Positions 9,802 through 47,134 of a DNA stretch of 53,785 bases are shown here, in pieces. The stretch is taken from assembly GCA_031384385.1 (NCBI GenBank), contig JANNAN010000019.1, positions 1 through 53,785 of the forward strand. Reading direction: 5' to 3'. How positions within the stretch are numbered: the stretch's first letter is position 1; every line of letters starts with the position of its first letter. The DNA is from Candidatus Tayloriibacteriota bacterium (GTDB lineage Bacteria; Patescibacteriota; Minisyncoccia; Phycocordibacterales; PALSA-1337). The notes beneath the pieces are model-generated. The model was not told the DNA's origin. It saw only the letters and a list, made by a program, of their open reading frames with translations, and made no database searches. The position numbers and the translations under genes were made by a program.

Positions 9802-9803
9802 AT

Positions 9804-10892: not shown

Positions 10893-10897
10893 CCCCC

Positions 10898-12908: not shown

Positions 12909-12918
12909 AAAGATAATT

Positions 12919-13254: not shown

Positions 13255-13255
13255 A

Positions 13256-13567: not shown

Positions 13568-13603
13568 AGTTTGCTATTTTACAAACAAGTATATAATTGC
13601 CTC

Positions 13604-14950
13604 ATGAAAGATTATACAGAACTATGGGAAAGAGCTCTTGTCGAAATAGAATTAGCAGTTTCTCATGCAAACTTTTCTACTTGGTTTAATGGAACTTATA
13701 TTATAAAACAAGAAGAGGGTGTGATATTTTTAGGTGTTCCCAATCCATTTATACAAGAATGGTTATATAAAAAATTTCACAATGTTATTTTAAGAACATT
13801 GAGACAGCTGAATGATCAAGTTCGCGGTTTAGAATATACAATTGCTAAGGATTCTGATAAGAAAAAAGAGGGTGATGACAAAAAAACTAATCCTAGCCCA
13901 ACAATATCAATGCCTCTGCAAGATTTTTATATAAATAAAGATGATAATCTAAATCCTAGATATCTTTTTGACAATTTTGTTGTTGGACCATTCAATGAAC
14001 TAGCCCACGCTGCTTCAAAAAGTGTTATAAAAAACCCAGGCTTTGCTTATAATCCATTATTCATTTATGGAAATACCGGCCATGGAAAAACTCATCTTAT
14101 ACAAGCAATAGGAAATCATATTAAGAAAGATTTTCCACAAAAAAAAGTATTCTACCTGACATCCGAAAGATTTGGTTCAGAATATTTTTCTTCACTCCAA
14201 ACAAATACAGCACAGAAGTTTAAAGAGAAGTATAGAAAATACGATGTTATTATAATGGATGATATTCAGTTTTTTGCTAGTAAAGAAAAATTTCAAGAAG
14301 AACTATTTCATTTATTTGAAACTTTTTACCAATCAAATAGGCAATTAGTATTTTCTTCTGATAAACATCCAAATTTTATACCTGGTCTTGAAGATAGACT
14401 TAAGTCTCGTTTTGGACAGGGAATGATTATAGATATTCCTGCTCCAGATCATGAATCAAGAATGGCTATACTAAAGGCCAAAGCATTATTAAGTAATATA
14501 GATTTGGAGTCTGAAATTCTTGATTTTCTAGCTGTAAATATAGAGAGCAATGTAAGAGAGCTTGAGGGTGTTGTTAATGCTATTGTTTGTCAAACTCAAT
14601 TAAAAAATCGACCACCGACATTATTGGAGGTAAAGAATTTAATTAAAAATAATACGAAACCAAAGAAAAATATACCAATCAAAGATGTTATAAAGTTAGT
14701 TTCTAGTTTTTATAATATTTCTGAAGAAAATGTATTCAATAAAACTAGAAAAAAGGAGGTTGTTAAACCGAGACAGGTAATTATGTATATTCTTCGAGAA
14801 GATTTTAATATTTCATTCCCATCTATAGGTGAGAAGCTTGGTGGTAGAGATCATACGACGGTTATTCACTCTTGTGAGAAAATAAAAGAGGATTTAAAAA
14901 CAAACAGTTTGCTTATGGATGAAATTTCTCAGATACGCGCAATGCTCTAA
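13604..14950 (+). CDS. dnaA: chromosomal replication initiator DnaA
   Basis: Walker A GNTGHGKTHL, Walker B VIIMDDIQFF, and C-terminal DNA-binding helix GGRDHTTVIHSCEKI. I moved the start to the ATG at 13604 (MKDYTELWERAL...) because the ORF-track extension to 13466 would run through the DnaA boxes. Confidence 0.9.
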   Translation: MKDYTELWERALVEIELAVSHANFSTWFNGTYIIKQEEGVIFLGVPNPFIQEWLYKKFHNVILRTLRQLNDQVRGLEYTIAKDSDKKKEGDDKKTNPSPTISMPLQDFYINKDDNLNPRYLFDNFVVGPFNELAHAASKSVIKNPGFAYNPLFIYGNTGHGKTHLIQAIGNHIKKDFPQKKVFYLTSERFGSEYFSSLQTNTAQKFKEKYRKYDVIIMDDIQFFASKEKFQEELFHLFETFYQSNRQLVFSSDKHPNFIPGLEDRLKSRFGQGMIIDIPAPDHESRMAILKAKALLSNIDLESEILDFLAVNIESNVRELEGVVNAIVCQTQLKNRPPTLLEVKNLIKNNTKPKKNIPIKDVIKLVSSFYNISEENVFNKTRKKEVVKPRQVIMYILREDFNISFPSIGEKLGGRDHTTVIHSCEKIKEDLKTNSLLMDEISQIRAML

Positions 14951-14963
14951 TTGTTTAAAAGTA

Positions 14964-15167
14964 TGTGGAAAAGATGTGAATGACTGTTGATTAGTTGGTA
15001 ATAAAATAATAAATTAAAAAATTAATAAAAAGTTATGAGAAATATAAAAAAAATAATCCACAACATAGGAAACAATTATAAGCCTAAAGAAAAGGGTATT
15101 GTGGAGTTATCACCATATCCACAGGACTAATAATAATAATAAGTATTTATATATATAAAAAACAAAT
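14964..15167. promoter_or_regulatory. candidate oriC (dnaA-dnaN intergenic): DnaA boxes plus AT-rich unwinding-element candidates
   Basis: Boxes: TGTGGAAAA (14964-14972, reverse complement TTTTCCACA), TAATCCACA (15054-15062) and ATATCCACA (15115-15123). Almost pure A/T stretches at 15001-15053 and 15127-15167. Confidence 0.6.
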
Positions 15168-16274
15168 ATGAAAATAGAATGTGTACAAGAAAAATTAAAA
15201 ATAGCGATAGGGTATGCAGAGAAAATTGCAGGTAAACATATGACATTGCCTGTCTTGTCATGTCTCCTTATTGATGCTTCTTCAAAAAATAATTTAATTA
15301 TTAAAGCTACGAATCTAGATTTGGGTATTGAAATTTCAATACCAGCCAAAATTGACGAAATAGGAGTTGTTGCTGTTCCAGCTCAAATTATAAATTCTTT
15401 CGTAGGAGGCGTTATAAGAGATGAAAAAGGAGTTTCATTGATAATGGAGCAAAGTAATCTTAAAGTAACAACCTCGCACAGTTCTGGGGTTATAAAGACC
15501 ATGCCAGCAGACGACTTCCCAAGTATTCCTAGAATATCAGATGAAAATAATTTTTATATAAATGGAAGTGATTTTGTTAAGGGATTAAAATCTGTGGCTT
15601 ACAGTTCTTCTATTTCAAGTATTAAACCAGAATTATCCAGTGTTTATATATACTGCGAAGATGAATTTGTTGTATTTGTTGCTACAGATTCGTTTAGACT
15701 TGCAGAAAAAAGAATTAAAATTAAAAAAAGTAAGGATTTTGGACAAATTCTTATTCCGTTCAAGAACATTCCAGAAATTATAAGAATTTTAGAATTAATA
15801 AACGATGAAGTTGAGGTTAATCTAAATAAAAATCAAATATCATTTAATTATAAAGGTATTTACTTGGTTTCAAGAGTAATAGATGGTGTTTTTCCAGATT
15901 ATAAACAAATTATTCCAAAAACAAATACAACAGAAATCACTCTATTGAAACAAGACCTTATAAGTGCTCTAAAATTATCAAATATTTTTTCTGATAAATT
16001 TAATCAAATCAATTTTAAAATTGATTCTATAAATAAAAAATGCGAAATTAAAACAAAAAATAGTGATATTGGAGAAAATACAACAGTACTGGAAGCTTCT
16101 ATTTCGGGAGATGGTATAGAGATAAATTTTAATTATAAATATATTATTGATTGTTTTCAATCTATAGATTCAGATAGTGTTACTTTATATTTTGGAGGAT
16201 TGAACAGACCTATGGTTATTAGTCCTGTTTCTGATAATTCTTTTAGATATTTAGTAATGCCAATGAATAGATAA
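15168..16274 (+). CDS. dnaN: DNA polymerase III beta sliding clamp
   Basis: 368 aa. The position after dnaA, the three-domain length and the C-terminal RYLVMPMN all fit DnaN. Confidence 0.85.
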   Translation: MKIECVQEKLKIAIGYAEKIAGKHMTLPVLSCLLIDASSKNNLIIKATNLDLGIEISIPAKIDEIGVVAVPAQIINSFVGGVIRDEKGVSLIMEQSNLKVTTSHSSGVIKTMPADDFPSIPRISDENNFYINGSDFVKGLKSVAYSSSISSIKPELSSVYIYCEDEFVVFVATDSFRLAEKRIKIKKSKDFGQILIPFKNIPEIIRILELINDEVEVNLNKNQISFNYKGIYLVSRVIDGVFPDYKQIIPKTNTTEITLLKQDLISALKLSNIFSDKFNQINFKIDSINKKCEIKTKNSDIGENTTVLEASISGDGIEINFNYKYIIDCFQSIDSDSVTLYFGGLNRPMVISPVSDNSFRYLVMPMNR

Positions 16275-23009: not shown

Positions 23010-24707
23010 CTAATCTTCAATAGAAATCACTCTTTCAAGTTCGTCAAAGGATGTGATTCCTTGTAATATTTTTATAATACCATCTTGCTTCAATGTTAGG
23101 AGAGATTGAGGAGCTGCGACTTTTTCAATCTCATCTGCACTTGGATTATTTTCTATAACCGCATTAACTTCTGGTGTCATTTTTATTCCCTCATAAATAC
23201 CGATTCTTCCTTTGTATCCAGTATGATTGCATTTTTCACAGCCATTTGATTCGGCTATAAAAATATTTGTAGGTATTGGTGGAATATCATTTTTATCAAA
23301 AATTGTAGCTACAATTTTATCTATTTGAATTTTCACATTATTTTCCATAGCAACTGGTTTTTTGCAGAATTCACAAAGTTTTCTTACAAGTCTTTGTGCT
23401 AGAACAATATTTATTGCAGAACTCATAATTTTAGGATTTATTTTTAGATCAATGAGTCTTGGAAAAGCACCAGCAGCACTATTCGTGTGAAGGGTAGAGA
23501 AAACTAGGTGGCCTGTAAGAGCAGAGTTGATGGCGATTGCCGCTGTTTCTCCATCTCGAATCTCGCCGACCATAATAATATCTGGATCTTGTCTAAGGGC
23601 CGCGCGTAGACCATCTAGAAAAGAATATCCCTTATCATTTACTTGGGTCTGAACAATACCCGGAAGATGGTATTCTATAGGATCTTCGATTGTGATAATT
23701 TTTACTGTTGGATTGTGAGTTTTTTTTAAGAAAGCGTAAAGAGTTGTTGTTTTTCCAGATCCAGTTGGTCCTGTTGTTAATAACATACCATTTGGCTTTT
23801 CTATTTCTTTTAAAATGATATTTAGAAGTTTTGGTGGAATACCAAGTTCTTCAAGTGGAACTCCGATAGATTTTGGATTCAGAATACGCATAACAATAGA
23901 CTCATTGTATGCCCCAGGTAGAATAGAAGTACGAATTTCAATATTTGTATCTTTAACATGAACACTGAATCTTCCATCTTGCGAATCTTTTTTAATATTT
24001 AATTTTAATCCTGAAAGTAATTTTACACGAGAAAGTAGAAGATTGTATGTATCTTTGTCGAAATCTAAAACTTTCACAAGTACACCATCAAGGCGATATC
24101 TAAGTCTTATATATTCTTCTTCTGGTTCAATGTGCACATCGGATGCTCTTGTTGCTAGAGCTCCAGCAAGAATAGTTTCCAGAATTCTTGAAACTCGATA
24201 GCTCTTTTTCATAGAAAGAGTATTTTCTAGTATGGAAATAATAGTCGGTAGACCTTCAGCTTTTTCAATTATTTCTGAAATTTCATCACTATTTACTTCT
24301 AGAGAACCCGCCTTACTTTCATATGCGAACGAAAGATCTTTGAAACTACTCCACGCCCTTTCAAGTCCTGCTGTAGAAGCAATACAAAGTATTACTGTAT
24401 ATCCTTTTGTTTTTAAACCATCAATAACTTCTTTAGTTCCTTGATCTTCTGGTAAACGCACTGCAACTTTAAGCTTCTTATCTGTAAGGTGAAATGCTGC
24501 CATTTTATTTTCTCTAGATGTTTTCTCGTCTATTAATCTTAATGCATCAGAATTGATTAATGTTACAGATAGATCAACATATTCGATGCCATATTTGGCA
24601 GAAAGTAATTGAACTAATTCCTCCTCCTCTTTTTTTAGTAGATCTGAAACTTTTCTATTTTGCTTATCTTCGTCAAATTGAATCATTTGTCTTTTATTAT
24701 AGCCCAT
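23010..24707 (-). CDS. pilB: PilB/GspE-family type II/IV secretion (type IV pilus assembly) ATPase
   Basis: 565 aa with Walker A GPTGSGKTTTLYA, a tetracysteine motif CEFCKK...CEKCNHTGYKGRIGIYE, and an N-terminal T2SSE_N-like region. Confidence 0.85.
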   Translation of the reverse strand: MGYNKRQMIQFDEDKQNRKVSDLLKKEEEELVQLLSAKYGIEYVDLSVTLINSDALRLIDEKTSRENKMAAFHLTDKKLKVAVRLPEDQGTKEVIDGLKTKGYTVILCIASTAGLERAWSSFKDLSFAYESKAGSLEVNSDEISEIIEKAEGLPTIISILENTLSMKKSYRVSRILETILAGALATRASDVHIEPEEEYIRLRYRLDGVLVKVLDFDKDTYNLLLSRVKLLSGLKLNIKKDSQDGRFSVHVKDTNIEIRTSILPGAYNESIVMRILNPKSIGVPLEELGIPPKLLNIILKEIEKPNGMLLTTGPTGSGKTTTLYAFLKKTHNPTVKIITIEDPIEYHLPGIVQTQVNDKGYSFLDGLRAALRQDPDIIMVGEIRDGETAAIAINSALTGHLVFSTLHTNSAAGAFPRLIDLKINPKIMSSAINIVLAQRLVRKLCEFCKKPVAMENNVKIQIDKIVATIFDKNDIPPIPTNIFIAESNGCEKCNHTGYKGRIGIYEGIKMTPEVNAVIENNPSADEIEKVAAPQSLLTLKQDGIIKILQGITSFDELERVISIED

Positions 24708-28151: not shown

Positions 28152-28811
28152 ATGATTTATTTTTATTATGGAACTGATATAAAAAAGACTCATCTTAAAT
28201 CATATGAACTTATAAATTCTTTACTAAAAAAGAAGCCTGATGCATCATTTTTTAAAATAGATACAGAAAATTTTGATGTGATTACCTTGAAAGAATATGT
28301 CGGTAGTCAAGGATTATTTTCAGATAAATATATAGTTTTATTGGATAGACTTTGTGAAAAAAAAGATATAAAAGAAGAGTACATTGATTTATTAAAAGAA
28401 ATTTCTGGATCTGATAATATTTTCATAATTCTTGAGGGTAAAATAGACAAAGTTACAGCCACAAAAATTGAGAAAAAATCAGAAAAAACGATCAAATTTG
28501 ATCTTGAAGAATCTTTTAATAAAAAAAGTGATTCGAATGCATTTGAAATTGCTAATGCCTTAGGTAGAAGAAATAAAAAAGAGATATGGATATTATATCG
28601 TAAGTATATTGATTCTGGATCTGCACCAGAGGAATTGCACGGCATTTTATTTTGGAAAGCCAAAAATATGCTTCTTATAAAAGATTTCTCTTCTTGGAAA
28701 GAAGAAGAATTATTAAATTTAATAGATAAATTAATAACCATTTATCATGAAGCAAGAAGAGGGAATGGAGAGTTGGAAACAAGTCTTGAGGCCCTAATAC
28801 TTATTATTTAA
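28152..28811 (+). CDS. holA: DNA polymerase III delta subunit-like (short)
   Basis: 219 aa. The N-terminal pattern IYFYYGTD...LFSDKYIVLLD...NIFIILEGKIDK resembles HolA domain I. Shorter than typical HolA. Confidence 0.45.
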   Translation: MIYFYYGTDIKKTHLKSYELINSLLKKKPDASFFKIDTENFDVITLKEYVGSQGLFSDKYIVLLDRLCEKKDIKEEYIDLLKEISGSDNIFIILEGKIDKVTATKIEKKSEKTIKFDLEESFNKKSDSNAFEIANALGRRNKKEIWILYRKYIDSGSAPEELHGILFWKAKNMLLIKDFSSWKEEELLNLIDKLITIYHEARRGNGELETSLEALILII

Positions 28812-30365
28812 TGGTAATGAGAAACTAAAAGTACTTCCTTTCTCTAGTCCCTCTGAGTTTGCCCATATTTTACCTTTATGGCGCGAGATAATTTCTTTTG
28901 CAATAAATAATCCAATTCCCATACCCTCAGTATCTGCTTTTCTAGCTTCATGCGTTCTATAAAATTTTGAAAATATAAGATTAAATTCTTCTTTGCTTAT
29001 ACCCATGCCTGTATCATGTATAGAGAATATCATATCTTCACTATTCTTTTTAAACCCTATGGATATAATCCCATTATCCTTTGTGTAATGGATAGCATTC
29101 TCTATTAAGGTTTGAATTACAAATTTTATTCTTGCGAGATCACATTTAGTTTCTATTCCAGTCTCTATAGATTCAGTTATGTTTAATTGCTTGGCTTTGA
29201 TTTGATCAGATACAGATTCCAAAACATTTTCTACTGCCTTACTTATATCATTTTTTTCAAATTTATATTTGTATGAACTGTGCTCTGCTTCAGATGTTGT
29301 AACTAATAAGTCAGTTAATTCTATAAGTTTTTCATTTGCATTTTTTATATAACCCACCTGTGTAGACATTTCTGGAGTTAGTTGATAATTCTTTAGATTT
29401 TCTATTGCCCACTTTATTCCAGTTAAAGGTGTGCGGAATTTATGAGTAACTGTAGTAAGAAATTCATATTTTAATAAATCATTTTCTCTTAATGTTTTCC
29501 AAACGACAGTACTGATTGTTACAAAAAAAACAGCAGATATTACAGCCGTAACCCATGTTGGATAATTTGGTAAAAAACTTGTTATTATTCCATTAGAAAA
29601 ATTTAATAGGATGATTATTCCACCAACTATGATAATGCCAATTGCATAAAAGAATGCTTGTTTCGCGACGATCTTCACATCGAATAATTCATATTTGATA
29701 GCTCCATATAAGAACGGGGGTATGAAGATAAGCGGAAACAGCATACCAATTAGTGGATCTATTGGAATATTATAAATAAGAAAATTTGGTACGAAGCCCG
29801 GTATAAAAGCAACTATCAGCGTTATGATTAAGTATTTGTATTGATTCTTCTTAATTTCAGAGCTAGCTTCTTTGCGAGTTTTAAATAATAAGTATATAGA
29901 ATAGGGCACACAAACTCCATACAAAAAGGGAACTCTTATCCAATTTAGTATCCCCGGATTATAATAATTTGGAAAATACATTTTAGGGACTGATGACAGT
30001 AAGAAAATATCTGGAAATATTGAAAAGAAAATTACAATGATGATTGCTGATAAATGTATTAATATTATTGTCCATTTATTTTCTTTTTCCTTACCTATCA
30101 TATAAATGACTGAATGGACCAAGAAACTACCAATAAAAAATAAAGATAGATTGAACATTAGAAAAAATTTGGATAAATCTGGATTAGTAACATTTACTCC
30201 AATTACATGAGATATTGTGAATATTACTACGAACAATGCTGAAAATGCGAATGTAATATTTGTAATTTTATTTCTACCATTCAAAAAAGAAAATAAAGAA
30301 ACTCCTAATAATAATAAAGTCGACATCACTGATGTAATATTATGAGCGATTAGGTGGATATTCAT
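28794..30365 (-). CDS. sensor histidine kinase with a ~8-TM N-terminal domain (no response regulator in the window)
   Basis: H-box HKFRTPLTGI, N/G boxes HDTGMGIS and GMGIGLFIAKEI. Its start overlaps the stop of the upstream cohesin-like gene (CAATGAAT, ATGA overlap at 30362-30365). Confidence 0.85.
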   Translation of the reverse strand: MNIHLIAHNITSVMSTLLLLGVSLFSFLNGRNKITNITFAFSALFVVIFTISHVIGVNVTNPDLSKFFLMFNLSLFFIGSFLVHSVIYMIGKEKENKWTIILIHLSAIIIVIFFSIFPDIFLLSSVPKMYFPNYYNPGILNWIRVPFLYGVCVPYSIYLLFKTRKEASSEIKKNQYKYLIITLIVAFIPGFVPNFLIYNIPIDPLIGMLFPLIFIPPFLYGAIKYELFDVKIVAKQAFFYAIGIIIVGGIIILLNFSNGIITSFLPNYPTWVTAVISAVFFVTISTVVWKTLRENDLLKYEFLTTVTHKFRTPLTGIKWAIENLKNYQLTPEMSTQVGYIKNANEKLIELTDLLVTTSEAEHSSYKYKFEKNDISKAVENVLESVSDQIKAKQLNITESIETGIETKCDLARIKFVIQTLIENAIHYTKDNGIISIGFKKNSEDMIFSIHDTGMGISKEEFNLIFSKFYRTHEARKADTEGMGIGLFIAKEIISRHKGKIWANSEGLEKGSTFSFSLPLNNKY

Positions 30366-32077
30366 TGTGATATATCTTTTATTTCTTTGGTAATTGTGTT
30401 CTCTGATTCATCAAGATTTTTTTCAAAATGTTCTAGAAAAGCAATTTCTTCAGTAGTTAGTTTGCGTTTCGACTTCATAGATTTTAGTTTTGCTATATGT
30501 TCATCAATATCTTTTCTTAAAATGCTAAAAGATTTCCTTAGAATATATTCAGCTTCTCTAGCTTCGCGACGAAGAAGACGTAAAACTCTGAATAGGCGAT
30601 ACCAAAGAAATATACCCAGACCAATAATGCCACCTAGGGCAAGAATTGCGAATATTATTGCAGACATATATTTAAGTGCAAGATCTGTGATTTTGGTAAG
30701 GAATGGTGAATTAACGATAAGATTTAGGGGTTGAGTTTCATTGCTACGCGCACCTCTTGTGTCGATTACTCTTGCAGTGAATGTATACACTCCTGGCGGT
30801 AGAAGTTTTGTTGTGACTATAACAAAATCTCCAAATTCATTACTTTTTGTATATTCTTCAGATAGAATTTTGTTGTTTTGTTTAATAGAAATAGTAATAT
30901 CAGAATTTTTATAAGTTGTACCAAGAATCTTTATGATATCTCCAGATTCAATCTCTTCTTTATAATATTTTATTGTTGGAGCTTCAATATTTTCAATGGT
31001 GAAATCGGCAGAAGCACTTACAGTATTTCCCGCCTCATCAATAGCAGTAGCAATGACAGTGTGTGTACCTGGAAATTGTGAGGTGAGTGTATATGGGCTT
31101 GAAACTTCTGATGGCTCTACGCGTATAGGACTACTTCCTTCAACTTTAATATCGTAGTGACTGATACCAGAATCATCATCTGTTGTGCTAAAAATAAGTA
31201 CTGGCCTTGGTTCAAAACCCTTTGCTCCATGAGGAAAAGTAATAGAGAAGGGGTTCGGTGGCTTATTATCAATATTTACTCTATAACGAGCAATGTCACT
31301 CCAACCTTCGGCATTGCGTATCTGTAAAGAGAAATAATATGTTCCATTTGGAAGTGTATCAACTTTCTTCTTTGAAATGGGTGATGTATATAAAACAGTT
31401 GGAGTGATATTGGCAGATTTACCAATAAAAGTTCTCACCTCGATTGCATTTGGTGGAAGAGTCCATGAAAACTCAGGTGTATTGTTTGAATACCATTTGG
31501 CTTGATCTGAATGCGTTATTGATGAAATTGTCGGAGTATTTTTATTAGAATTATTTGCAGGTACAATAACTTTTTCGTTTATACCAGAATTTACAACAAA
31601 ACTAGCTGTACCCATACCATCAAGAATATCCGCACCAGATCCATCATTGGCGAGTATAGATCCAGAAGAAAAGCTTATATTTGCAAGACCAGCAGACTTT
31701 GCTCTAAAAACAACTGTAATGACATTCCCTTGAATACCAGTATAGCCGGGATTAAGAATTACTCCTTCAAAGTTCACCTTACCTTGAGTATTTGAAAAAG
31801 AAGGCTCTTGCACCCAAAGATTCACAATTGAATTGGATTTTGAAAGACTTATTACTTCAATTTTATCTTGTGGAAAAGATACAATTCCAGAAGCAGCATT
31901 TGCTGATTTATTAGGGCTAGAGACATATACATTTACCGAGAAAATATCTCCAATATTCCTTGAGACAGTTGATGGAGAAAATCCTAGAGTTGCAGCACTA
32001 GAGATATAAGGAAGACAGAAAAAAATAATAAATATAAAAACAATTTTAATTAATTTTGTGAATTCTTTTTTCTGCAT
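30362..32077 (-). CDS. cohesin-like domain surface protein with Ig-like repeats, a C-terminal TM anchor and a cytoplasmic coiled-coil tail
   Basis: Signal peptide IVFIFIIFFCLPYISSA. Cohesin-like module: IGDIFSVNVYVSS...ASGIVSFPQDKIEVISL...GKVNFEGVILNPGYTGIQGNVITVVFRAKSAGLANISF. TM segment AIIFAILALGGIIGLGIFLWY. I placed the start at MQKKEF (32077) rather than the ORF-track 32131. Confidence 0.6.
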   Translation of the reverse strand: MQKKEFTKLIKIVFIFIIFFCLPYISSAATLGFSPSTVSRNIGDIFSVNVYVSSPNKSANAASGIVSFPQDKIEVISLSKSNSIVNLWVQEPSFSNTQGKVNFEGVILNPGYTGIQGNVITVVFRAKSAGLANISFSSGSILANDGSGADILDGMGTASFVVNSGINEKVIVPANNSNKNTPTISSITHSDQAKWYSNNTPEFSWTLPPNAIEVRTFIGKSANITPTVLYTSPISKKKVDTLPNGTYYFSLQIRNAEGWSDIARYRVNIDNKPPNPFSITFPHGAKGFEPRPVLIFSTTDDDSGISHYDIKVEGSSPIRVEPSEVSSPYTLTSQFPGTHTVIATAIDEAGNTVSASADFTIENIEAPTIKYYKEEIESGDIIKILGTTYKNSDITISIKQNNKILSEEYTKSNEFGDFVIVTTKLLPPGVYTFTARVIDTRGARSNETQPLNLIVNSPFLTKITDLALKYMSAIIFAILALGGIIGLGIFLWYRLFRVLRLLRREAREAEYILRKSFSILRKDIDEHIAKLKSMKSKRKLTTEEIAFLEHFEKNLDESENTITKEIKDISQ

Positions 32078-32928
32078 AATTTTTTTATTAAGAATAACAA
32101 GATGAAGAGTACACTTATAATAATAAACCAATATTGTATATTCTCATAATGGCTTGGTGGATACTTTGGTTCAATTTCAATAATTCGTTCATTACCAAGC
32201 TTGTCGATTGCCTTTAGAAATATTTTCTTGCTAAGAGTTTGGTCTTTTAACAAATATGGACTTTCTACAACAGTAAACCAATCTAATATTCCTTCACGAA
32301 CTTTGTAGTTGGCTATGCCAGATATTTTATCTTGTGTGGCGAAAACAAGAAAATATTTTCCATCAAATATATTTGGATCTTTCTCAATAGTAGGGAAGAA
32401 GTTCTCTGGTAAGTCTTTATCAGTTAATATTTCTTCCGAGGCATTACTAATTCCTGATTTTATATAGACAGCTGTATTATTTAGTTTAAGTTCTACGGGG
32501 CTACCTAATCCATCATTTTTTAAAGCTTTCAAATCTTCTAATACAATAGAAGTTAAGCCTGTACCTTTTGCCTCAAAAACTACAGAAAAAATACTCTTAT
32601 TTGCCCCATTAAATCCTCCAGGGGTAATGCCAGAAAACAAAACAGAACCTGATTTTTCAATATGTGGTTTTTCAATCCAAAAGTTTATAACAGAATTACC
32701 ATCACGGATCTCCTTAATGGATAGCTTATCTGTTGGAAATACTAATCTACCACTGATAGCATTCAATGATTCTTCGGAATGAACTATGATATCTAGTGAA
32801 AATTGCTCATCAGAATTGACCTCTGATTTATGTGTATCAAGACGAATCTCAGCAGCAAAAACTGATTCAGCAATAAAAAATAAAGATATTAAAAGAAAAA
32901 CAGATGTTATTTTTGTATAAATATTCAT
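32050..32928 (-). CDS. cohesin-like domain surface protein with a C-terminal TM anchor
   Basis: Signal peptide ...IAESVFA. Cohesin-like module: EQFSLDIIVHSEESLNAISGRLVFPTDKLSIKEI...SGSVLFSGITPGGFNGANKSIFSVVFEAKGTGLTSIVL. C-terminal TM segment YWFIIISVLFILLFLI. Confidence 0.6.
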   Translation of the reverse strand: MNIYTKITSVFLLISLFFIAESVFAAEIRLDTHKSEVNSDEQFSLDIIVHSEESLNAISGRLVFPTDKLSIKEIRDGNSVINFWIEKPHIEKSGSVLFSGITPGGFNGANKSIFSVVFEAKGTGLTSIVLEDLKALKNDGLGSPVELKLNNTAVYIKSGISNASEEILTDKDLPENFFPTIEKDPNIFDGKYFLVFATQDKISGIANYKVREGILDWFTVVESPYLLKDQTLSKKIFLKAIDKLGNERIIEIEPKYPPSHYENIQYWFIIISVLFILLFLIKKLCRKKNSQN

Positions 32929-32932
32929 GATA

Positions 32933-33946
32933 TTATCCTGTCCAATTAAATGCCATTATTGAAAAATCTATAAGGTTTACTTTGCCATCTCCATTTAAAT
33001 CAATCAATGTTGGAGGATTGGCTCTTTTATACCAATACGCAATAATAGAAAAATCTATAAGGTTTACTTTGCCATCCTTGTTTAAGTCTGATTTTGAGAT
33101 AATCTTTTCTAGTGATTGTAAGAGTACATTCTTTGTACCCACAATAAAAGCTGCAACCTTACTAAAAGAGCTGATCTCACCATCTAGATATACTTTTGAT
33201 TTGGTGCTATGTTGTCCCATTTCAAGTACGGAGGTATCAAAGTTCAGTAAGTATACTCCATTTGCATCAGATTTTTTTTTTACAAAAAATTCTTCCTCGG
33301 AATTAATATTAACTGTTATTTCGGATAAAGGTGCGCTTTGTCCAAAAATAGCAATATTATCTCCACGACGCACTTCACTTTTATCAACAGCAATAGATGG
33401 TGCTATAAAGATATTACCGATTTTTGTGGTTACTCCAGCAGTAACACTTATTGGAAAAGTAAAGAGTGATGATCTGACACCTTTATCATCTTCTGAATAG
33501 ACACTAAAAATATAATTTCCACCAGAAAGACTTGATATTGTCATTTGAAAATTTGCACCTGCATCAGCAATCGTTGTTGCTGCAACCTGAGCATCTTTTA
33601 GAAGGGTAACTGTACTTCTTGGGTATGCTTTACCTGTAAAAACAACATTGGTGTTTGGAATAGTAGGAGTATTATTTCCTCCGCCTCCACCACCAGAATT
33701 AGAGCTACACATCGAAGTATTTAATGTACATGATGCTGTGCAAGAAAGAGTTCCTCCGGTAAAACCTTGTAAAGTACAAGATCCACCACCAAGATTTGAG
33801 CCGTCACATTGCTCACCGACAGAAATTATACCGTCTCCACATCCAGGTACTATTGCCGATATTTCAACAGTAATAGCTAAAACACTAAATGGAAAGAAAA
33901 ACAGAGAGAGTAAAAAAATGATTGATAGTGGATAAAATGATCTCAT
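32933..33946 (-). CDS. secreted dockerin-containing protein with an N-terminal Cys-rich repeat and an Ig-like middle region
   Basis: The C-terminus holds two canonical dockerin calcium-binding repeats, DLNKDGKVNLIDFSII and DLNGDGKVNLIDFSIM. The N-terminus CGDGIISVGEQCDGSNLGGGSC...SCTASC resembles the CGDG...EQCD cysteine-rich repeat. Confidence 0.75.
   Translation of the reverse strand: MRSFYPLSIIFLLSLFFFPFSVLAITVEISAIVPGCGDGIISVGEQCDGSNLGGGSCTLQGFTGGTLSCTASCTLNTSMCSSNSGGGGGGNNTPTIPNTNVVFTGKAYPRSTVTLLKDAQVAATTIADAGANFQMTISSLSGGNYIFSVYSEDDKGVRSSLFTFPISVTAGVTTKIGNIFIAPSIAVDKSEVRRGDNIAIFGQSAPLSEITVNINSEEEFFVKKKSDANGVYLLNFDTSVLEMGQHSTKSKVYLDGEISSFSKVAAFIVGTKNVLLQSLEKIISKSDLNKDGKVNLIDFSIIAYWYKRANPPTLIDLNGDGKVNLIDFSIMAFNWTG
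32961..33076 (-). repeat. 29-nt perfect direct repeat encoding the two dockerin segments
   Basis: gaaaaatctataaggtttactttgccatc occurs at 32961-32989 and again at 33048-33076 (87-nt period, 29 codons). Confidence 0.9.
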
Positions 33947-34930
33947 TCATTTTTGTTGTTGTGCTTGAGCAATAATCCAACGATTATATTTTTTGAGTGC
34001 TATTTTTCCTAAAAATCCAATGATAGAAGCTATGATAAGAACAATTATGAGTAGTTGCCAAGGGATAACAAAGAAGTTGTAGCTAGCCCTTGCTATCTGA
34101 TTTGTTGCTCCCCATGTAATATTTAGTTTTGCTGTATACCAACCGAAATGAAAATTATTCCATTGTTGTCCAACCATCTCAAAAAATCCAGGAATAGCAA
34201 TCTCTTCTTTGGAATTAGTTGGTTTTTGTATTTCTTGCCCCCATAGTACTTCAAATTTTCTGGCACTTCCTGGCAATACACTACCCTCATTTTTATTTGC
34301 TAAAAGTTTGGCTGAGGTATACTGTACTGTATTTTTAATTTTGATTTCACCCAAAGGCACAACACGATCTCCACCGGTATTATTTAGACGATAGGTAAAT
34401 GCTATTGGCAGGGTAGTAAAAAATCTCTGTTTTTCTTTGGTGTTAAACTCTAGTAGACCACCTCCTTCTTCTACATCACCAGAAACACGCAAAAGTATCA
34501 AAACACCTATTTTTCCACCGACAGATACTTGTCCTCCACCTTGTATGCCGGGCTCTTGGCTACCAAAAAATATTGCAGCAAAATGACCCCCTGGCTCAGC
34601 ATTTTTGGGAATAGTAATAGAATATGGAATGATAGTACGATTACCTGATTCTAGTATAACTTTACTTTTTGAATTTATCCATGTAGCGAGACCATCTTTT
34701 GCGCCAATAAAATGAGGAGCACCAGTATCTCCACTTGGTTCAAAATTTTCAAATGAAGTATAGAAGGTTCTTGCCCCCTCCTGCTCGTTAAAAAGCTCTA
34801 TTTCACCCTCAAGTTTTGCTCCTGGATCACCAGTAATCTCAACTCTTGCTGGGGATACTGTTAAAGCAAATACCGGACTTGCTATGCTTGCAATTACTAT
34901 AACTAGAATTGTATAAAATAAATTTCGCAT
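33947..34930 (-). CDS. DUF916/DUF3324-like (CscA-like) surface protein with a C-terminal TM anchor
   Basis: Signal peptide, then LTVSPARVEITGDPGAKLEGEIELFN and ...IIPYSITIPKNAEPGGHFAAIFF (DUF916-like pattern). A second beta domain contains TYRLNNTGGDRVVPLGEIKIKN. C-terminal TM segment LLIIVLIIASIIGFLG. Its stop abuts the next start (TGAATG). Confidence 0.55.
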   Translation of the reverse strand: MRNLFYTILVIVIASIASPVFALTVSPARVEITGDPGAKLEGEIELFNEQEGARTFYTSFENFEPSGDTGAPHFIGAKDGLATWINSKSKVILESGNRTIIPYSITIPKNAEPGGHFAAIFFGSQEPGIQGGGQVSVGGKIGVLILLRVSGDVEEGGGLLEFNTKEKQRFFTTLPIAFTYRLNNTGGDRVVPLGEIKIKNTVQYTSAKLLANKNEGSVLPGSARKFEVLWGQEIQKPTNSKEEIAIPGFFEMVGQQWNNFHFGWYTAKLNITWGATNQIARASYNFFVIPWQLLIIVLIIASIIGFLGKIALKKYNRWIIAQAQQQK

Positions 34931-34971: not shown

Positions 34972-36024
34972 CTAAAAGTTAGCAGTTGTTACATATGTAA
35001 GGGTAGAAGTGTATGCTCCCGCTTCTGTGTTTGAGGCGATGTTCGCAATATATCTTGCTGAGTAAGTGGTATTTGCAGAACTACCAGAAGCCGAAGCTAC
35101 TTGACTGGGGAAGGATGCTGTATTAAGTGCAAATCCTGATGCTGCATAAGGAGCAGTTACTGTACCAGAACCTCCTGTAGCAGTCATACGCAAACCAAAT
35201 TGTTCCGTACCAATAGCAGATGCTGTGTTTGATGCACCAATCGCAGTTATAGTGAATGCACCACTAGTTAGTGTAGTTCCATTCAGTGTCATACTGTAAC
35301 CACTTCCTGCATTTGTACCAACAATAACATTGTGTGCTTCTACTTCTGATGCTGAACAAGCAGCAGTACCTTGTGCATAACAAGCTGCTGATGATGAAAG
35401 ACTTCCAAAACCGATAGTGTTATCTGAAATACTGAATGTTAGAGATTGATCAACAGTAGCCGTAACTGCTACTTGGTCATCAGTTAAAATATTCACTGTT
35501 ATGTTTCCTGTGTCTGTAAATGTACCAGAAATAGCTATTACCTTTGAACCATTAGAAGTGGTGTTGGTGATCTGTCTAACCCCAGTTGATTGGTTGGTAG
35601 CATTTGTACCAATTTTAATTCTCATTACACTACCAGCTGTAACTACGGTTGTACCGTTTGTAAGAGTTATTACTGTTGCTGAAGTACGAACCGCTCCCCA
35701 TGTAGCACCAGATGGAGAGGCTGCCAAAGTAACATTTGATGCATCATCAAGCACATCCATATCAGTAAAATCCATGGCAGCTGCTATAGAAAAATCAGAT
35801 GGCAAAGTAATAATAATAGTTTGGCCTGAGGCAACACCGGTAGGCGTTGTAAATTGGATATCATGGTTAGCTAGAGTGCTGACCTTTTGTGAAGATAGGG
35901 TATCAGAGGCAGCAGTGATCGCGGCAGCATAGGCCGTCTGTACCCCACTTGAGAGTGTAAGTAATCCTATAACAAGATAAAGACTTGTTAGAAAATGTAC
36001 TCTTGAAATAAATGTTCTGTTCAT
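34972..36024 (-). CDS. secreted beta-rich surface/fibre subunit candidate (paralog A)
   Basis: Signal peptide ...GVQTAYA; Thr/Ser/Ala/Gly-rich. Its C-terminal ~155-aa module (QSLTFSISDNTIGFGSL...GTEQFGLRM...AGAYTSTLTYVTTANF) is shared with the next gene. The module ending resembles SCPU/WxL-type subunits. Confidence 0.6.
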   Translation of the reverse strand: MNRTFISRVHFLTSLYLVIGLLTLSSGVQTAYAAAITAASDTLSSQKVSTLANHDIQFTTPTGVASGQTIIITLPSDFSIAAAMDFTDMDVLDDASNVTLAASPSGATWGAVRTSATVITLTNGTTVVTAGSVMRIKIGTNATNQSTGVRQITNTTSNGSKVIAISGTFTDTGNITVNILTDDQVAVTATVDQSLTFSISDNTIGFGSLSSSAACYAQGTAACSASEVEAHNVIVGTNAGSGYSMTLNGTTLTSGAFTITAIGASNTASAIGTEQFGLRMTATGGSGTVTAPYAASGFALNTASFPSQVASASGSSANTTYSARYIANIASNTEAGAYTSTLTYVTTANF

Positions 36025-36133: not shown

Positions 36134-37138
36134 TTAAAAAGTTGCTGTTACAGTATATGTTAAAACTGAAGAATAACTTCCATTTTCAGTATTAGCAGAA
36201 ATATTACTTATATAACGAACTCCAAATTGACTGGTTACTCCATCTCCAGCACCTGATGTAACCTGATCTGGAAATGTAGCAGTATCCATTGCCCAATTTG
36301 AACCATTGTATGGAGCGCTCACTGAACCTGTCCCAGAATTTACAATCGCACGCAAACCAAATTGTTCAGTTCCTGAGCTTCCTGCTACGGCTGTACCACC
36401 TATTGCTGTAACAGTATTTCCGCCAGATGTAAGTGTATTCCCATTGAGCGTCATTGTGTAACCGCTAGATGCATTGGTTGATATTGATATAGTATGAGCA
36501 TCACTTGTATCAGATGCAGAACCATTTGTATCTCCTGTGGCATATCGAGCTCCTGAAGCCACAAGTGTGCCAAAACCAATAGTATTATCTGAAATACTAA
36601 ATGTTAATGATTGACTTCCTCCAACAGCAGTGGCACATATTTTAGTAGTGTAGGCACTTCCATCTCCGACATGAGAATTTGTAGTTGCATTTAAAGAGCC
36701 AAGAGTTGTATCAAATCCAGAACAATTAGTTGCCTGATAACCAACTGATACAGAACCTCCTGATGGTACTGATATACAAGCATTGTTAGCATAATTTACT
36801 TGACTGTTTTGTTCCACATGAGCGTTACTTGTTCCAGATAATTTAAGTACCGTAGCAAATGTACCAGAGCAAGAATTACCGAGACTACTTACTCCGCTAC
36901 AACAAATAACATTATTGCTATAATTTCCATTTGCTTGACTAGGAAGTTCCGCATGAGCATTTGATGATCCGGACATGCGCAAAATCACTGTATTAGTACA
37001 AGCAGCAGCAGTTGTAATAGAGCAAGATAAAGTACCAGCATGAGAAATATGTTCAAATGATAATGCAAAGAAAAAGATGGTCAAAAATAAAACTGTAATC
37101 CTTTGTTTCTTATTAAAAAGTTGTAGTAGTTGTACCAT
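36134..37138 (-). CDS. secreted beta-rich surface/fibre subunit candidate (paralog B) with a triple Cys-containing N-terminal repeat
   Basis: Three copies of an SNAH-type motif: MSGSSNAHAELPSQANGNYSNNVICC, LSGTSNAHVEQNSQVNYANNACIS and LNATTNSHVGDGSAYTTKICAT. The C-terminal module QSLTFSISDNTIGFGTL...GTEQFGLRA...NGSYSSVLTYTVTATF is paralogous to 34972-36024. Confidence 0.6.
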   Translation of the reverse strand: MVQLLQLFNKKQRITVLFLTIFFFALSFEHISHAGTLSCSITTAAACTNTVILRMSGSSNAHAELPSQANGNYSNNVICCSGVSSLGNSCSGTFATVLKLSGTSNAHVEQNSQVNYANNACISVPSGGSVSVGYQATNCSGFDTTLGSLNATTNSHVGDGSAYTTKICATAVGGSQSLTFSISDNTIGFGTLVASGARYATGDTNGSASDTSDAHTISISTNASSGYTMTLNGNTLTSGGNTVTAIGGTAVAGSSGTEQFGLRAIVNSGTGSVSAPYNGSNWAMDTATFPDQVTSGAGDGVTSQFGVRYISNISANTENGSYSSVLTYTVTATF

Positions 37139-38030
37139 TGGTGTTTATGTTTTCACTTAGAGAGGGTAGAGCTTCAATAACATTAGCTGTCATATCAGGC
37201 AGAGAATTTGAAGAAAAACTAGAAGGTGTAGTCGTTTCAGTGATAGTTTCAGAAATCAAAACTCCATCTATTGGAGCAGTAACAATTTGTCCATCAATTA
37301 AGTCTGATTTTATAGAAGTGATAGCTGTATCTTCTTGTATAATTTCTTCTGTAACTAGTTCAATATTTTGTGGTATTGGTTTAATATCACTAAATCCAGA
37401 CATTGCCATTTCTCCTGTACTATCTGAACCAAAAACCATATGTGCAAAATCAAAAACCGTACTCTCTGGATTGTCATATGTATATTCTTTGTAAATTCCA
37501 TCATCAATTTTTATTTTGAAAGTTCCTGCCTCTCCTATTTTTTGATCAAAATTGATTGTGAAAAGATACCATTTATCAGCATCATAATCTGAAAGTAAAG
37601 AAATTTGTTGGTCTGCTTCTTCTAATATAATACCTTTTGATTCAGTAAATTTAATACTAAATAACATCTGACTACTAGCATCTGATGTTAGAGCATTAAA
37701 ATAAAACAATCCTTTTTTATTATGACGCATTCTTAATTGAAAAATTCCGCTATTTAATGGTGTGATATCGTGAACAGCTGTGATAAAACCATCATGAATC
37801 ATTTCTACATATTTTGTATCTCCATCTGGATATGTCGTAGAAACATTGGCAATCCCATTAGAATTTCCTGAATGATTTGTTACCACCCAACCACCTTGCC
37901 CATTAAGATTGCCAAGACTGTATGATTCAAAAGTATCTTCAAATGCCCAATTACTATTTGCAGATACAAAATTTACAGTAAAAAACATCAAAACTAGAGG
38001 AAATAAAAATTTTGTAAAAAGTTTCTTCAT
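37113..38030 (-). CDS. secreted LamG/concanavalin-like lectin-fold candidate
   Basis: Signal peptide ...FTVNFVSA. The beta-sandwich-like sequence WAFEDTFESYSLGNLNGQGGW...KWYLFTINFDQ...FKIKIDDG resembles LamG-type domains. Thr-rich C-terminus. Overlaps the next gene by 26 nt. Confidence 0.45.
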   Translation of the reverse strand: MKKLFTKFLFPLVLMFFTVNFVSANSNWAFEDTFESYSLGNLNGQGGWVVTNHSGNSNGIANVSTTYPDGDTKYVEMIHDGFITAVHDITPLNSGIFQLRMRHNKKGLFYFNALTSDASSQMLFSIKFTESKGIILEEADQQISLLSDYDADKWYLFTINFDQKIGEAGTFKIKIDDGIYKEYTYDNPESTVFDFAHMVFGSDSTGEMAMSGFSDIKPIPQNIELVTEEIIQEDTAITSIKSDLIDGQIVTAPIDGVLISETITETTTPSSFSSNSLPDMTANVIEALPSLSENINTNGTTTTTF

Positions 38031-38064: not shown

Positions 38065-39591
38065 TTACCAAGAGTAGATGAAAATAGCACCTCTACCACC
38101 CGCGCCACCAGCACCACCTAATCCTGGGTTCATTCCCACTCCACCTCCACCTCCTCCACCACCATGTATGCCACCAGCACCACCAGCACCACCAGCGGTT
38201 GAGGCAGTAACAGTCGTGCCTCCTCCTCCACCACCCGCGCCACCTTTTGTAGAATTACCCGCTGCACCAGCAGTTCCAGCGGTTGGAGAAGCTCCATCAG
38301 TACCTACCGCTCCTCCTCCAGCCGCAATGTAAGAAGTAACTCTACCTCCTGCTGAACCAGCAACTATAGCTGGGGTAACATTGTGATGCCCACCTGAACC
38401 CCCACCTCCACCGCCAAAAATAGAACCACCTCCCACAACACTTGCTGGAGCTGAAGTACTTCCACCACCACCTGCACCACCATATTCAGCATTGTGTGTA
38501 GTAACAACAGTGATTGGGCCCTGAGAACCAGTTCCTCCTGTAACACCAGTAACATTACTTGTTCCAGGAAGTCCTCCAGCTCCTACTGCTGTACTACCTG
38601 TACCACCGGCACCTCCATTACCCCCACCTCCACCTCCACCACTTGCAACAGCCGAAATAGCTCCCCCTCGACCACCACCACCTCCAAATGCTGAAAGTAT
38701 AACTGTTGTACCAAATGTAGAATTGCCACCGATTCCTCCATCACCACCTGCTGCACCAGCGGCTCCAGCTGCACCAGCAGTTCCACCAACACCCACATTC
38801 AAACTTTCAGTTGATCCTAAATCTGAGGCTCTGTAGAGTCTACTTACGAATACACCACCTCCACCACCTGCACCACCTTTTGCTACGACAGCTGTAGCAA
38901 GTGATGCACCTGCTCCACCTCCACCACCACCACCCCACATAACAACCTCTACGAAGTCTGGAATAAAAGTAGTCGGTTTTGTCCATGTTCCAGCACCTGT
39001 AGATGTGAACGCCTGTACATCGGATAAAGGAGAGCTCGACCATGTAGTACCGTTAGAAGTAAGCACATTACCTGAAGTTCCTGGAGCAACAAATGTAGGA
39101 TTACTCGTTCCATTTCCGAGAATAACATTGTTCGCTGTAAGTGTGGCAAGACCAGTACCTCCTTGTGCAACCGTTACAGCAGAGTCTGAAGTAAGAACAG
39201 TGGCATTGGCATTTGGAAATGTGAAAGTTTTAGCAGTTGAAGCTGGTCCAGCAGCAGTGAAGAATGCCATACCTGTACCTCCGTTTGCACTTGGTAAAAT
39301 ACCAGTTATACCATTTGTTAAATCGATCTGTGCCCATGCGGGATTATTTGATGAACCTGTATTGGAAAGATATCTTGTGGCGGAAGTATTTTTTGCCAAA
39401 GCTGTAAGTGTGTCTGCTGCTGATCCATAAAAAATATCACCCTGTGCTGCTCCACCACCAATAGCACTAAAATCATGTCCGGGATTTGGAGTTACAGCGA
39501 ATGCGATACTGATTATGGAAAATGAAATTAGAAGAAGCCAAAAAATACTTAGAGCTTTATTTGTATTTGAAACGAGAGATAACTTTTTCAT
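38065..39591 (-). CDS. secreted tail-fibre-like protein with a glycine-rich C-terminal domain
   Basis: Signal peptide ...IISIAFA. Repeats ITGILPSANGGTG and VTVAQGGTGLATLTANNVILGNG are the GGTG motifs seen in phage tail-fibre-like proteins. FTSTGAGTWTKPTTFIPDFVEVVMWGGGGGGGAG starts a ~280-aa Gly/Ala-rich domain. Confidence 0.65.
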   Translation of the reverse strand: MKKLSLVSNTNKALSIFWLLLISFSIISIAFAVTPNPGHDFSAIGGGAAQGDIFYGSAADTLTALAKNTSATRYLSNTGSSNNPAWAQIDLTNGITGILPSANGGTGMAFFTAAGPASTAKTFTFPNANATVLTSDSAVTVAQGGTGLATLTANNVILGNGTSNPTFVAPGTSGNVLTSNGTTWSSSPLSDVQAFTSTGAGTWTKPTTFIPDFVEVVMWGGGGGGGAGASLATAVVAKGGAGGGGGVFVSRLYRASDLGSTESLNVGVGGTAGAAGAAGAAGGDGGIGGNSTFGTTVILSAFGGGGGRGGAISAVASGGGGGGGNGGAGGTGSTAVGAGGLPGTSNVTGVTGGTGSQGPITVVTTHNAEYGGAGGGGSTSAPASVVGGGSIFGGGGGGSGGHHNVTPAIVAGSAGGRVTSYIAAGGGAVGTDGASPTAGTAGAAGNSTKGGAGGGGGGTTVTASTAGGAGGAGGIHGGGGGGGGVGMNPGLGGAGGAGGRGAIFIYSW

Positions 39592-46582: not shown

Positions 46583-46599
46583 ATGCGGGAACTATTTTG

Positions 46600-46686
46600 C
46601 GGATGGGGTGAGATTCGAACTCACGGCCCACTTGCGCGGGCGACAGTTTTCAAGACTGTTGCTTTAGACCACTCAGCCACCCATCC
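46600..46686 (-). tRNA. tRNA-Ser (anticodon TGA)
   Basis: 87 nt with acceptor GGATGGG/CCCATCC, anticodon stem-loop ACAGT CTTGAAA ACTGT, a long variable arm and T-arm GTGAG TTCGAAT CTCAC. CCA not encoded. Confidence 0.85.
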
Positions 46687-46747
46687 TTGGTGTATGAAGA
46701 TATTCTCACATTTTGCTACAAATTTCAACATAGAGTACACTGTCAGC

Positions 46748-47134
46748 ATGAGAATACTCGGAATTGACTATGGATCTAAGCGTGTAGGGATTGCACTTTC
46801 TGATGAAGGAAGACAATTTGGTATTCCTTTAATTACAATAAATAATTCAAAAAATACCCTAAAAGAGGTAATAGAAATTGCAAAAATAAACAATGTAAAA
46901 GAAATAGTAATAGGTGAATCAAAAAATTATAAAGGAGAAGCTAATACTATTCTTCCCGAAAGTTTAAACTTTAAAATGGATTTAGAAAAAGAAGGGTATA
47001 CGGTTTTTTTGGAGCCAGAATTCATGACAAGTATGAATGCGGAGAGATTTCAAGGTAAAACTGATATGCTTGATGCTTCAGCCGCAGCATTGATATTACA
47101 AAGTTTTTTGGATAAGGAAATGGCAAAGAATTAG
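46748..47134 (+). CDS. ruvX: putative pre-16S rRNA nuclease / Holliday junction resolvase-like YqgF (RuvX)
   Basis: MRILGIDYGSKRVGIALSD start. I placed the start at 46748 because the ORF-track N-terminal extension runs antisense through tRNA-Ser. Confidence 0.8.
   Translation: MRILGIDYGSKRVGIALSDEGRQFGIPLITINNSKNTLKEVIEIAKINNVKEIVIGESKNYKGEANTILPESLNFKMDLEKEGYTVFLEPEFMTSMNAERFQGKTDMLDASAAALILQSFLDKEMAKN

Follow-up and report, generated by a model that had tools for sequence, protein, structure and literature searches.

In a 53,785-nt (53.8-kb) stretch of DNA from a Candidatus Tayloriibacteriota bacterium (contig JANNAN010000019.1, positions 1 to 53,785; this whole stretch is hereafter called the window), we identified three adjacent minus-strand genes, designated A, B, and C and collectively the triad, which encode a secreted dockerin protein followed by two cohesin-type proteins that are predicted to be anchored in the membrane. 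This gene order (dockerin, short cohesin, long cohesin) is close to invariant in bacteria of the Candidate Phyla Radiation (CPR, or Patescibacteria). From the identity of the domains, the fixed synteny, and the pattern of conservation, we propose that protein A is docked onto C and/or B by a non-cellulosomal cohesin-dockerin interaction, a reading to which we assign a probability of roughly 0.6.

Gene A (32933-33946, minus strand) encodes a protein of 337 amino acids, for which the translated open reading frame (ORF) and Pfam matches give a layout of a signal peptide (residues 1-24), a Cys-rich head (~25-82), a Gly-rich linker, two immunoglobulin (Ig)-like domains (~96-180 and ~181-270), and a dockerin at the C-terminus. 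The dockerin module (residues 279-337; 32936-33112, minus strand) matches Pfam Dockerin_1 (PF00404) over residues 286-331 at 39.4 bits (gathering cut-off, 22.9) and scored 110 bits with our own dockerin hidden Markov model (HMM). Type I dockerins consist of two segments of ~22 residues, each with a 12-residue loop (D-x-N/D-x-D-G-x-x-x-x-x-D) and then a helix. The same pattern occurs in tandem in A, where the segments DLNKDGKVNLIDFSII (residues 287-302) and DLNGDGKVNLIDFSIM (residues 316-331) contain two intact EF-hand-like calcium loops of 12 residues, DLNKDGKVNLID (33053-33088) and DLNGDGKVNLID (32966-33001). After each loop comes a helix of the form FSI(I/M)A, the full continuations being FSIIAYWY and FSIMAFNW, respectively. 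Among the A orthologs listed, the D-x-N-x-D-G...D loop pattern is retained, and the consensus at the extreme C-terminus reads D-x-N-x-D-x-(R/K)-V-N-L-(V/I)-D-F-S … D-L-N-x-D-G-K-V-D-L-V-D-F-S-I-M-A-(F/Y)-x-W-T-G.

The two dockerin segments of A are also strikingly similar at the DNA level, as they contain a 29-nt perfect direct repeat, GATGGCAAAGTAAACCTTATAGATTTTTC, with copies at 33048-33076 and 32961-32989 (minus strand) that lie 87 nt apart. The longest internal repeat in the dockerin DNA of 70 orthologs has a median length of 8 nt and reaches 29 nt or more in only three of them. Therefore, the repeat exceeds what protein constraint alone would impose and is lineage-specific, which suggests that the two segments were recently homogenised by intragenic gene conversion, both here and in a few other lineages (loci L075 and L084).

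The Ig-like domains of A resemble the membrane-proximal Ig domain of C (hhalign, 96.8% and 95.5%), and the protein has a Big_6 match of 25.9 bits, which is under the Pfam cut-off. In a set of 55 orthologs, residues 100-337 are conserved and the head is variable; some lineages have, instead of the Cys-rich head, much larger and unrelated N-terminal regions, with the dockerin retained. Such a variable and swappable head is typical of a displayed, target-facing part of a surface protein. Enlarged homologs of A include proteins of 710, 602, and 460 amino acids (loci L039, L046, and L066, respectively).

Gene B (32050-32928, minus strand), as defined by ORF translation and profile homology, encodes the shorter cohesin-type protein (292 amino acids), which comprises a signal peptide (residues 1-25), a cohesin-like module (~26-158; 32455-32853), an Ig-like domain (~190-255), a transmembrane helix (~264-281; 32086-32139), and a short basic tail. 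Gene C (30362-32077, minus strand) encodes the longer one (571 amino acids), whose signal peptide (1-28) and cohesin module (~29-165; 31583-31993) are followed by a stalk of three Ig- or fibronectin type III (FnIII)-like domains (~185-462; 30692-31525), a transmembrane helix (~471-493; 30599-30667), and a charged cytoplasmic tail of 78 residues (494-571; 30365-30598). C also has a Pfam Big_13 match of 30.6 bits. The tail is conserved in length and shows a recurring R-K-L-T..EE..FL motif. Although the reading frame of C remains open up to a TTG at 32131, its start codon is most likely the ATG at 32077, which gives the 571-residue length seen in the orthologs. Each of the two proteins has a single hydrophobic helix near its C-terminus, by which B and C are predicted to stay in the cytoplasmic membrane.

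The assignment of the N-terminal modules of B and C to the cohesin fold rests on three lines of evidence, namely Pfam matches of C orthologs, a structure model of C, and profile homology between B and C, as the direct sequence routes failed. Pfam Cohesin (PF00963) did not match B or C of the window at E <= 1, and no cohesin was retrieved from the PDB sequences either by phmmer with B and C or by searches with the family profiles. In contrast, the same Pfam family was found in 17 of the 31 C orthologs scanned (E <= 0.01); five orthologs that were checked scored 25.6-31.7 bits (cut-off, 24.1) and covered positions ~7-123 of the 139 in the model. For residues 22-182 of C, AlphaFold2 gave a model with a predicted local distance difference test score (pLDDT) of 90.3 and a predicted template-modelling (TM) score of 0.81, and in a Foldseek search of the PDB its top 42 matches consisted of cohesins only (types I, II, and III), including non-cellulosomal ones (E 8e-9 to 7e-6; TM scores up to 0.76 when normalised by target length). 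According to this model, the N-terminal module of C is a cohesin, a nine-stranded beta jelly-roll. The modules of B and C (~135 amino acids each) are 30% identical (E 1e-17), and their families align with each other in hhalign at 99.9% (E 7.6e-36), from which the module of B is judged to be of the cohesin type as well; in addition, the Ig-like domain of B matches domain 3 of C (hhalign, 98.8%). We found 726 homologs of B and hundreds of full-length orthologs of C. No precomputed Pfam match was present in the 120 B homologs listed, and the NCBI label 'cohesin domain-containing protein' is attached to some B homologs and some C orthologs.

These results agree in most respects with an initial annotation of the window, which had proposed a dockerin at the C-terminus of A, a 29-nt perfect repeat within it, cohesin-type modules at the N-termini of B and C, and a signal peptide and a terminal transmembrane helix in each of the latter two. 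Of the Dockerin_1 and Cohesin profiles that it named as a check, the former matched A, and the latter matched orthologs of C but not B and C of the window itself.

The arrangement of one dockerin and two cohesins, likewise put forward in the initial annotation, is found both in the window and across the CPR. With the family HMMs built here, exactly one dockerin ORF and two cohesin ORFs were detected in the whole window. In species-representative genomes (one genome per species), at least 533 relatives of A and at least 444 relatives of C were found, and, a few oddly labelled bins aside, nearly all of the records are titled after CPR lineages, which are mainly of the Parcubacteria type. They include Kaiser-, Taylor-, Nomura-, Campbell-, Zambryski-, Wolfe-, Jorgensen-, Colwell-, Portnoy-, Uhr-, Magasanik-, and Doudnabacteria, as well as Minisyncoccia and others. 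Of the 60 loci with enough flanking sequence, 57 have a dockerin ORF no more than 3.5 kb upstream of C; exactly two cohesin ORFs are present in 67 of 82 loci, and exactly one dockerin ORF in 66 of 82. The slowest-evolving parts of the triad are the dockerin of A, the cohesin of C, and the Ig-like domains of A (mean pairwise distances of 0.37, 0.40, and 0.42, respectively), and the distances for the stalk and tail of C and the cohesin of B are 0.59-0.65. The cohesin module is thus the best-conserved portion of C.

To our knowledge, CPR bacteria lack an outer-membrane usher and apparently also sortase anchoring. In the mechanism that we propose, A would be exported by the Sec pathway and would carry its lineage-variable Cys-rich head, two Ig-like domains, and an internally symmetrical, type-I-like dockerin out of the cell. 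B and C would also be exported and held in the cytoplasmic membrane, each with one cohesin, at its N-terminus, presented on the distal tip of its stalk. The dockerin of A would fold around two calcium ions and plug non-covalently into the cohesin of C and/or B, so that the binding may depend on calcium. The three-domain stalk of C would place its socket far out, and the one-domain stalk of B would place the other near the membrane; the variable head of A could thereby be held on the envelope at either of two heights, facing its target. Such docking would take the place of the sortase or S-layer homology (SLH) anchoring of Firmicutes.

The initial annotation regarded the triad as a self-contained set. 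This is not the case in this genome, in which the triad forms the 3' part of a predicted operon of nine minus-strand genes (39591 to 28794) that overlap or are spaced by 0-109 nt. The operon is bounded by a tRNA-Lys gene and a hairpin on its upstream side and by a convergent holA gene on its downstream side. In order, the operon encodes a glycine-rich protein of 508 amino acids, a secreted protein of 305 amino acids, two proteins of 334 and 350 amino acids, a protein of 327 amino acids (hereafter g327), A, B, C, and a histidine kinase. The proteins of 334 and 350 amino acids (36134-37138 and 34972-36024, minus strand) are Pam-type pilins, which match the NCBIfam model CPR_Pam_pilin_C with 66.7 and 78.1 bits, respectively (cut-off, 55). 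The protein g327 (33947-34930, minus strand), encoded directly upstream of A, has a signal peptide, two beta-sandwich domains, and a C-terminal transmembrane helix in its AlphaFold2 model (pLDDT 83.7). It has no Pfam or NCBIfam match, its 1123 homologs are without annotation, and its family profile retrieved nothing from the PDB sequences, so that the fold comparison alone is informative. Foldseek ranked the WxLIP structures 9i1y and 9i25 of Enterococcus first (E 3e-11), followed by RbmA and then by CfaA, CsuC, and DraB, which are pilus chaperones of chaperone-usher systems. Since the triad is predicted to be co-transcribed with the two pilins and this WxLIP- or chaperone-like protein, all of them most likely belong to the same surface adhesion or appendage apparatus.

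How well does the docking of A onto B and/or C stand up to these data? The conservation of the triad provides good contextual support for a plug-and-socket pair, and the distribution of conserved residues within the cohesin of C points the same way. In canonical cohesins, the dockerin is bound on the 8-3-6-5 sheet. The strands of this sheet are more conserved in the C cohesin than those of the other sheet (0.78 versus 0.63, p = 6e-4), with the strands assigned to sheets by canonical cohesin topology and not by the model coordinates. This manner of assignment is the first of several points that weigh against the proposal. The co-variation of dockerin and cohesin in a mirror-tree analysis is weak (rho 0.40; partial r 0.12 when controlled for the other domains). 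As B and C of the window have no match to Pfam Cohesin, and profile searches of PDB sequences yield no cohesin, their modules are distant from proven dockerin binders. The cohesin of B is much less conserved than that of C, and B may therefore not share its partner. Finally, among loci with at least 7 kb of upstream sequence, pilin-type genes are detectable in 19 of 41 and g327-type genes in 22 of 41, that is, beside about half of the triads, so that the link to a pilus may be optional.

Some of these points would also fit a reading in which the cohesin- and dockerin-fold modules do not bind each other but act independently as structural or ligand-binding domains. Host glycans or peptidoglycan might, for example, be their ligands, the dockerin might be no more than a calcium-stabilised cap, and the adjacency of the genes might reflect a shared surface role. 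This reading draws on the failure of B and C of the window to reach Pfam Cohesin detection and on the weak co-variation. It is also in line with the many non-cellulosomal cohesin- and dockerin-like modules that have no known partner (Peer et al. 2009) and with an essential dockerin-domain envelope protein of the saccharibacterium Southlakia, which was detected by transposon sequencing (Tn-seq) and is interpreted as glycan-targeting in the passing mention that it receives. However, only a functional pairing would readily account for a near-invariant triad of one dockerin and two cohesins, the dockerin and the C cohesin are the best-conserved segments of their proteins, and conserved positions of the C cohesin cluster on the strands of the canonical binding sheet. 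We thus consider independent action of the modules to be unlikely.

A further alternative assigns a more specific task to the triad, with A as the basal adaptor of a Pam-type filament. A would join the last pilin, e.g. via ITVEISAIV, a strand of alternating hydrophobic residues located after its signal peptide, and its dockerin would lock the filament onto the cohesins of B and C. The joint between cohesin and dockerin would thus do what PamR is proposed to do in Saccharimonadia. Pam pili are CPR-specific filaments assembled by donor-strand exchange that were described from Ca. Mycosynbacter amalyticus (Troman et al. 2026, bioRxiv 10.64898/2026.03.03.709456). That paper places Pam pilins mainly in Saccharimonadia and Microgenomatia, proposes as accessory proteins the PapD/FimC-like chaperones PamC and PamD and the RbmA-like anchor PamR, all with C-terminal transmembrane helices, and reports a conserved 'tail fibre-like' protein near pam operons. 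It further proposes a terminator that is anchored by a transmembrane helix, and no envelope-spanning machinery, which suits the adaptor role, as does the position of the triad directly downstream of the two pilin genes and g327 in a tight operon. The same order of pilin(s), g327, A, B, and C is seen again in the closest relatives, and in 29 of 49 loci the gene next to A on its upstream side encodes a protein with a signal peptide and a C-terminal transmembrane helix, in a form of either ~320 or ~200 amino acids.

Several observations nevertheless speak against such an adaptor. The middle domains of A are unrelated to the C-terminal domain of the Pam pilins (hhalign, 0.2% against that family), and a pilin-like subunit as the identity of A is rejected at the sequence level on the same comparison. 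The N-terminal region of A, which would have to supply a conserved donor strand, is its least conserved part and is swapped in some lineages. About half of the triad loci are without detectable pilin genes, and the Pam paper (10.64898/2026.03.03.709456) uses neither the word cohesin nor the word dockerin. A basal adaptor is therefore an improbable role for A. We attach a similarly low likelihood to the broader proposal that a cohesin-dockerin joint fastens a pilus or adhesin apparatus to the cell in many CPR bacteria. A would then link a donor-strand-assembled Pam-type filament, or its variable adhesive head, to two membrane-embedded sockets that differ in height, and the conserved cytoplasmic tail of C would pass the external load on to a partner inside the cell. 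If this were true, the joint would be load-bearing in host attachment and comparable in importance to the essential dockerin-domain protein of Southlakia.

The operon resembles the Pam system in its two pilins and probably also in g327, which, judged by its Foldseek matches and its transmembrane helix, shares the fold class reported for the putative accessory proteins PamC, PamD, and PamR. The glycine-rich protein at its head may correspond to the 'tail fibre-like' neighbour of pam operons. The operon differs from the Pam system in that the triad loci are of the Parcubacteria type and that A, B, and C match no Pam model; at E <= 1, no NCBIfam Pam model matched A, B, C, or g327. The two Ig-like domains and the C-terminal transmembrane helix of g327 are also reminiscent of WxLIP of the WxL clusters in Enterococcus and Lactobacillus (PMC10599100), which binds its partner via insertion of a beta-hairpin. 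However, no match to Pfam DUF916, DUF3324, or WxL was found, and the resemblance is that of g327 and not of the triad. We regard g327 as a candidate membrane-anchored chaperone or anchor of the PamC/PamD/PamR or WxLIP type, on the basis of its modelled fold. Overall, the triad is the most conserved core of these loci and is frequently but not always tied to genes for donor-strand-type filaments.

A short relative of g327 (~200 amino acids, apparently of one domain and ending in …FRKFFSFNIAVRK), with the same signal peptide and C-terminal transmembrane helix, is encoded immediately upstream of the A homolog in many loci, namely L001, L008, L010, L023, L030, L038, L040, L061, and L067, which suggests that g327-type membrane-anchored proteins occur in two size classes. 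Locus L011 contains, between its g327 and A homologs (~6870-7830), an extra ORF of 319 amino acids that starts like A (…AITVEITALVPGCGDGIVSVG) and ends like g327 (…FFVVPWQLL…RYNRIIIARA); this ORF may be a chimera or duplication of its two neighbours. The secreted protein of 305 amino acids (37113-38030, minus strand), which shows a weak match to a sialidase-like carbohydrate-binding module in Pfam (E 0.028), has a Thr-rich terminal strand with a final Phe (…GTTTTTF), and both pilins end in the same manner (…YVTTANF and …YTVTATF). Large proteins encoded upstream of A in other loci, some of them loci without HMM matches, have similar ends (…MVLTITAN and …SITVTVQVVSQ). The T-rich terminal strand may serve all of these proteins as a common C-terminal signal for assembly. 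At the head of the operon, the first gene (38065-39591, minus strand) encodes the glycine-rich protein (Pfam Gly_rich_2, 29.0 bits; cut-off, 24.3) and has a local G+C content of 45% in a 32% genome. Orthologs of this protein are encoded upstream of pilins in several related loci.

At the other end of the operon, C is followed by the histidine kinase gene (28794-30365, minus strand), the product of which (523 amino acids) has a multi-transmembrane N-terminus and HisKA and HATPase_c domains (31.8 and 78.7 bits, respectively, in Pfam). The TGA stop codon of C and the ATG of the kinase overlap as ATGA, in line with the initial annotation, which had described C as translationally coupled to the kinase. 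This overlap, together with the charged cytoplasmic tail of C with its conserved length and motif, might suggest a surface sensor, in which the occupancy of the C cohesin is signalled through the tail to the kinase. The coupling, however, does not extend beyond this locus: no kinase gene follows C directly in any of 80 species-representative loci, nor in the three close relatives with a C identity of 58-60%, and no response regulator was found in the window. As a property of the system, kinase coupling is therefore rejected, and the sensor reading is largely refuted in its general form and very improbable even here. The coupling of C to the kinase is an accident of local gene order or a lineage-specific addition, and since the tail of C is also conserved in loci that have no kinase gene in the vicinity, its partner must be a different protein.

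A minimal cellulosome, in which the cohesins would assemble dockerin-tagged carbohydrate-active enzymes, can be dismissed as having almost no likelihood: both folds are present and glycoside hydrolase genes lie some kilobases away in two related loci, but those hydrolases carry no dockerin annotation, the sole dockerin of the window and of each related locus belongs to A, which has no catalytic domain, B and C have one cohesin each, no match to a carbohydrate-binding module, and a transmembrane helix in place of SLH or sortase anchoring, and no dockerin-bearing enzyme was found in the window. Each related locus has either a single dockerin ORF or none. The non-cellulosomal character of the set, noted in the initial annotation along with its lack of a glycoside hydrolase, is thus confirmed.

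The proposed docking of A onto C and/or B finds its nearest counterparts among known non-cellulosomal pairs. The modelled fold of C is similar to the cohesins of the Clostridium perfringens toxin/glycosidase complexes (2vo8, 2jh2, and 2w1n) and of Archaeoglobus fulgidus (2xdh). As in those systems, in which single cohesin or dockerin modules are carried by proteins other than plant-cell-wall enzymes, the modules occur singly, and A has two calcium loops. Unlike those systems, B and C are anchored by C-terminal transmembrane helices, A has no enzyme domain, and the three genes form a fixed triad that appears to be confined to the CPR, lies beside pilin genes, and has only marginal sequence similarity to known cohesins. 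The clostridial anchoring scaffoldins SdbA, OlpA, OlpB, and OlpC (4dh2 and 3ul4) offer another parallel, because in them a cell-bound cohesin captures a dockerin, as would be the case here; the OlpC and OlpA cohesins are among the best structural matches of the C model. The triad differs from these scaffoldins in having a transmembrane helix instead of SLH or sortase anchoring, in the absence of a primary scaffoldin, carbohydrate-binding modules, and enzymes, and in the N-terminal position of the cohesin on an Ig-like stalk.

Non-cellulosomal cohesins and dockerins are already known, e.g. from C. perfringens and Archaeoglobus, and have been surveyed (Peer et al. 2009), and some orthologs of B and C carry cohesin labels assigned by annotation pipelines. 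Full-text literature searches for cohesin or dockerin in CPR, Parcubacteria, and Patescibacteria yielded no description of the triad. The fixed triad of one dockerin and two transmembrane cohesins, its wide distribution in the CPR, and its place in Pam-type pilus operons are therefore apparently undescribed.

The rest of the window (G+C, ~32%) has the gene content of a typical CPR chromosome, with dnaA, dnaN, a cluster resembling a type IV secretion system, type IV pilus genes, and many small unannotated genes. Positions 1-12181 are occupied by plus-strand ORFs, mostly without Pfam matches, around a TraG/VirB4-like P-loop ATPase gene (6509-8341, 94 bits); this run probably corresponds to the type IV secretion cluster of the monoderm type that has been reported for Patescibacteria. 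The grouping of yidC, rnpA, dnaA, and dnaN at 12189-16274 indicates that the window probably covers the region of the chromosomal replication origin. A PilB-like T2SSE ATPase and PilM are encoded at 23010-24707 and 48195-49133, and the organism thus appears to encode type IV pili in addition to the Pam-type system. A tRNA-Ser gene detected by ARAGORN (46599-46686, minus strand) lies inside the 5' end of a RuvX-like ORF (46583-47134). As the RuvX domain begins only at residue 56, the true start codon of this ORF is probably located downstream of the tRNA gene.

CPR bacteria are ultra-small cells bounded by one membrane, and their envelope proteins mostly lack annotation; little is known about how they assemble their surface and attach to host cells. 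The present analysis assigns folds to two families without Pfam annotation, represented by g327 (1123 homologs) and B (726 homologs). If the dockerin of A and the cohesins of C and/or B bind each other, the triad would provide a concrete and testable mechanism of attachment, the three soluble modules of which are small and easy to express. The pair would also be a high-affinity natural tag with which surface complexes could be pulled down from uncultivated CPR bacteria, and cohesin-dockerin biology would be extended well beyond polysaccharide degradation.

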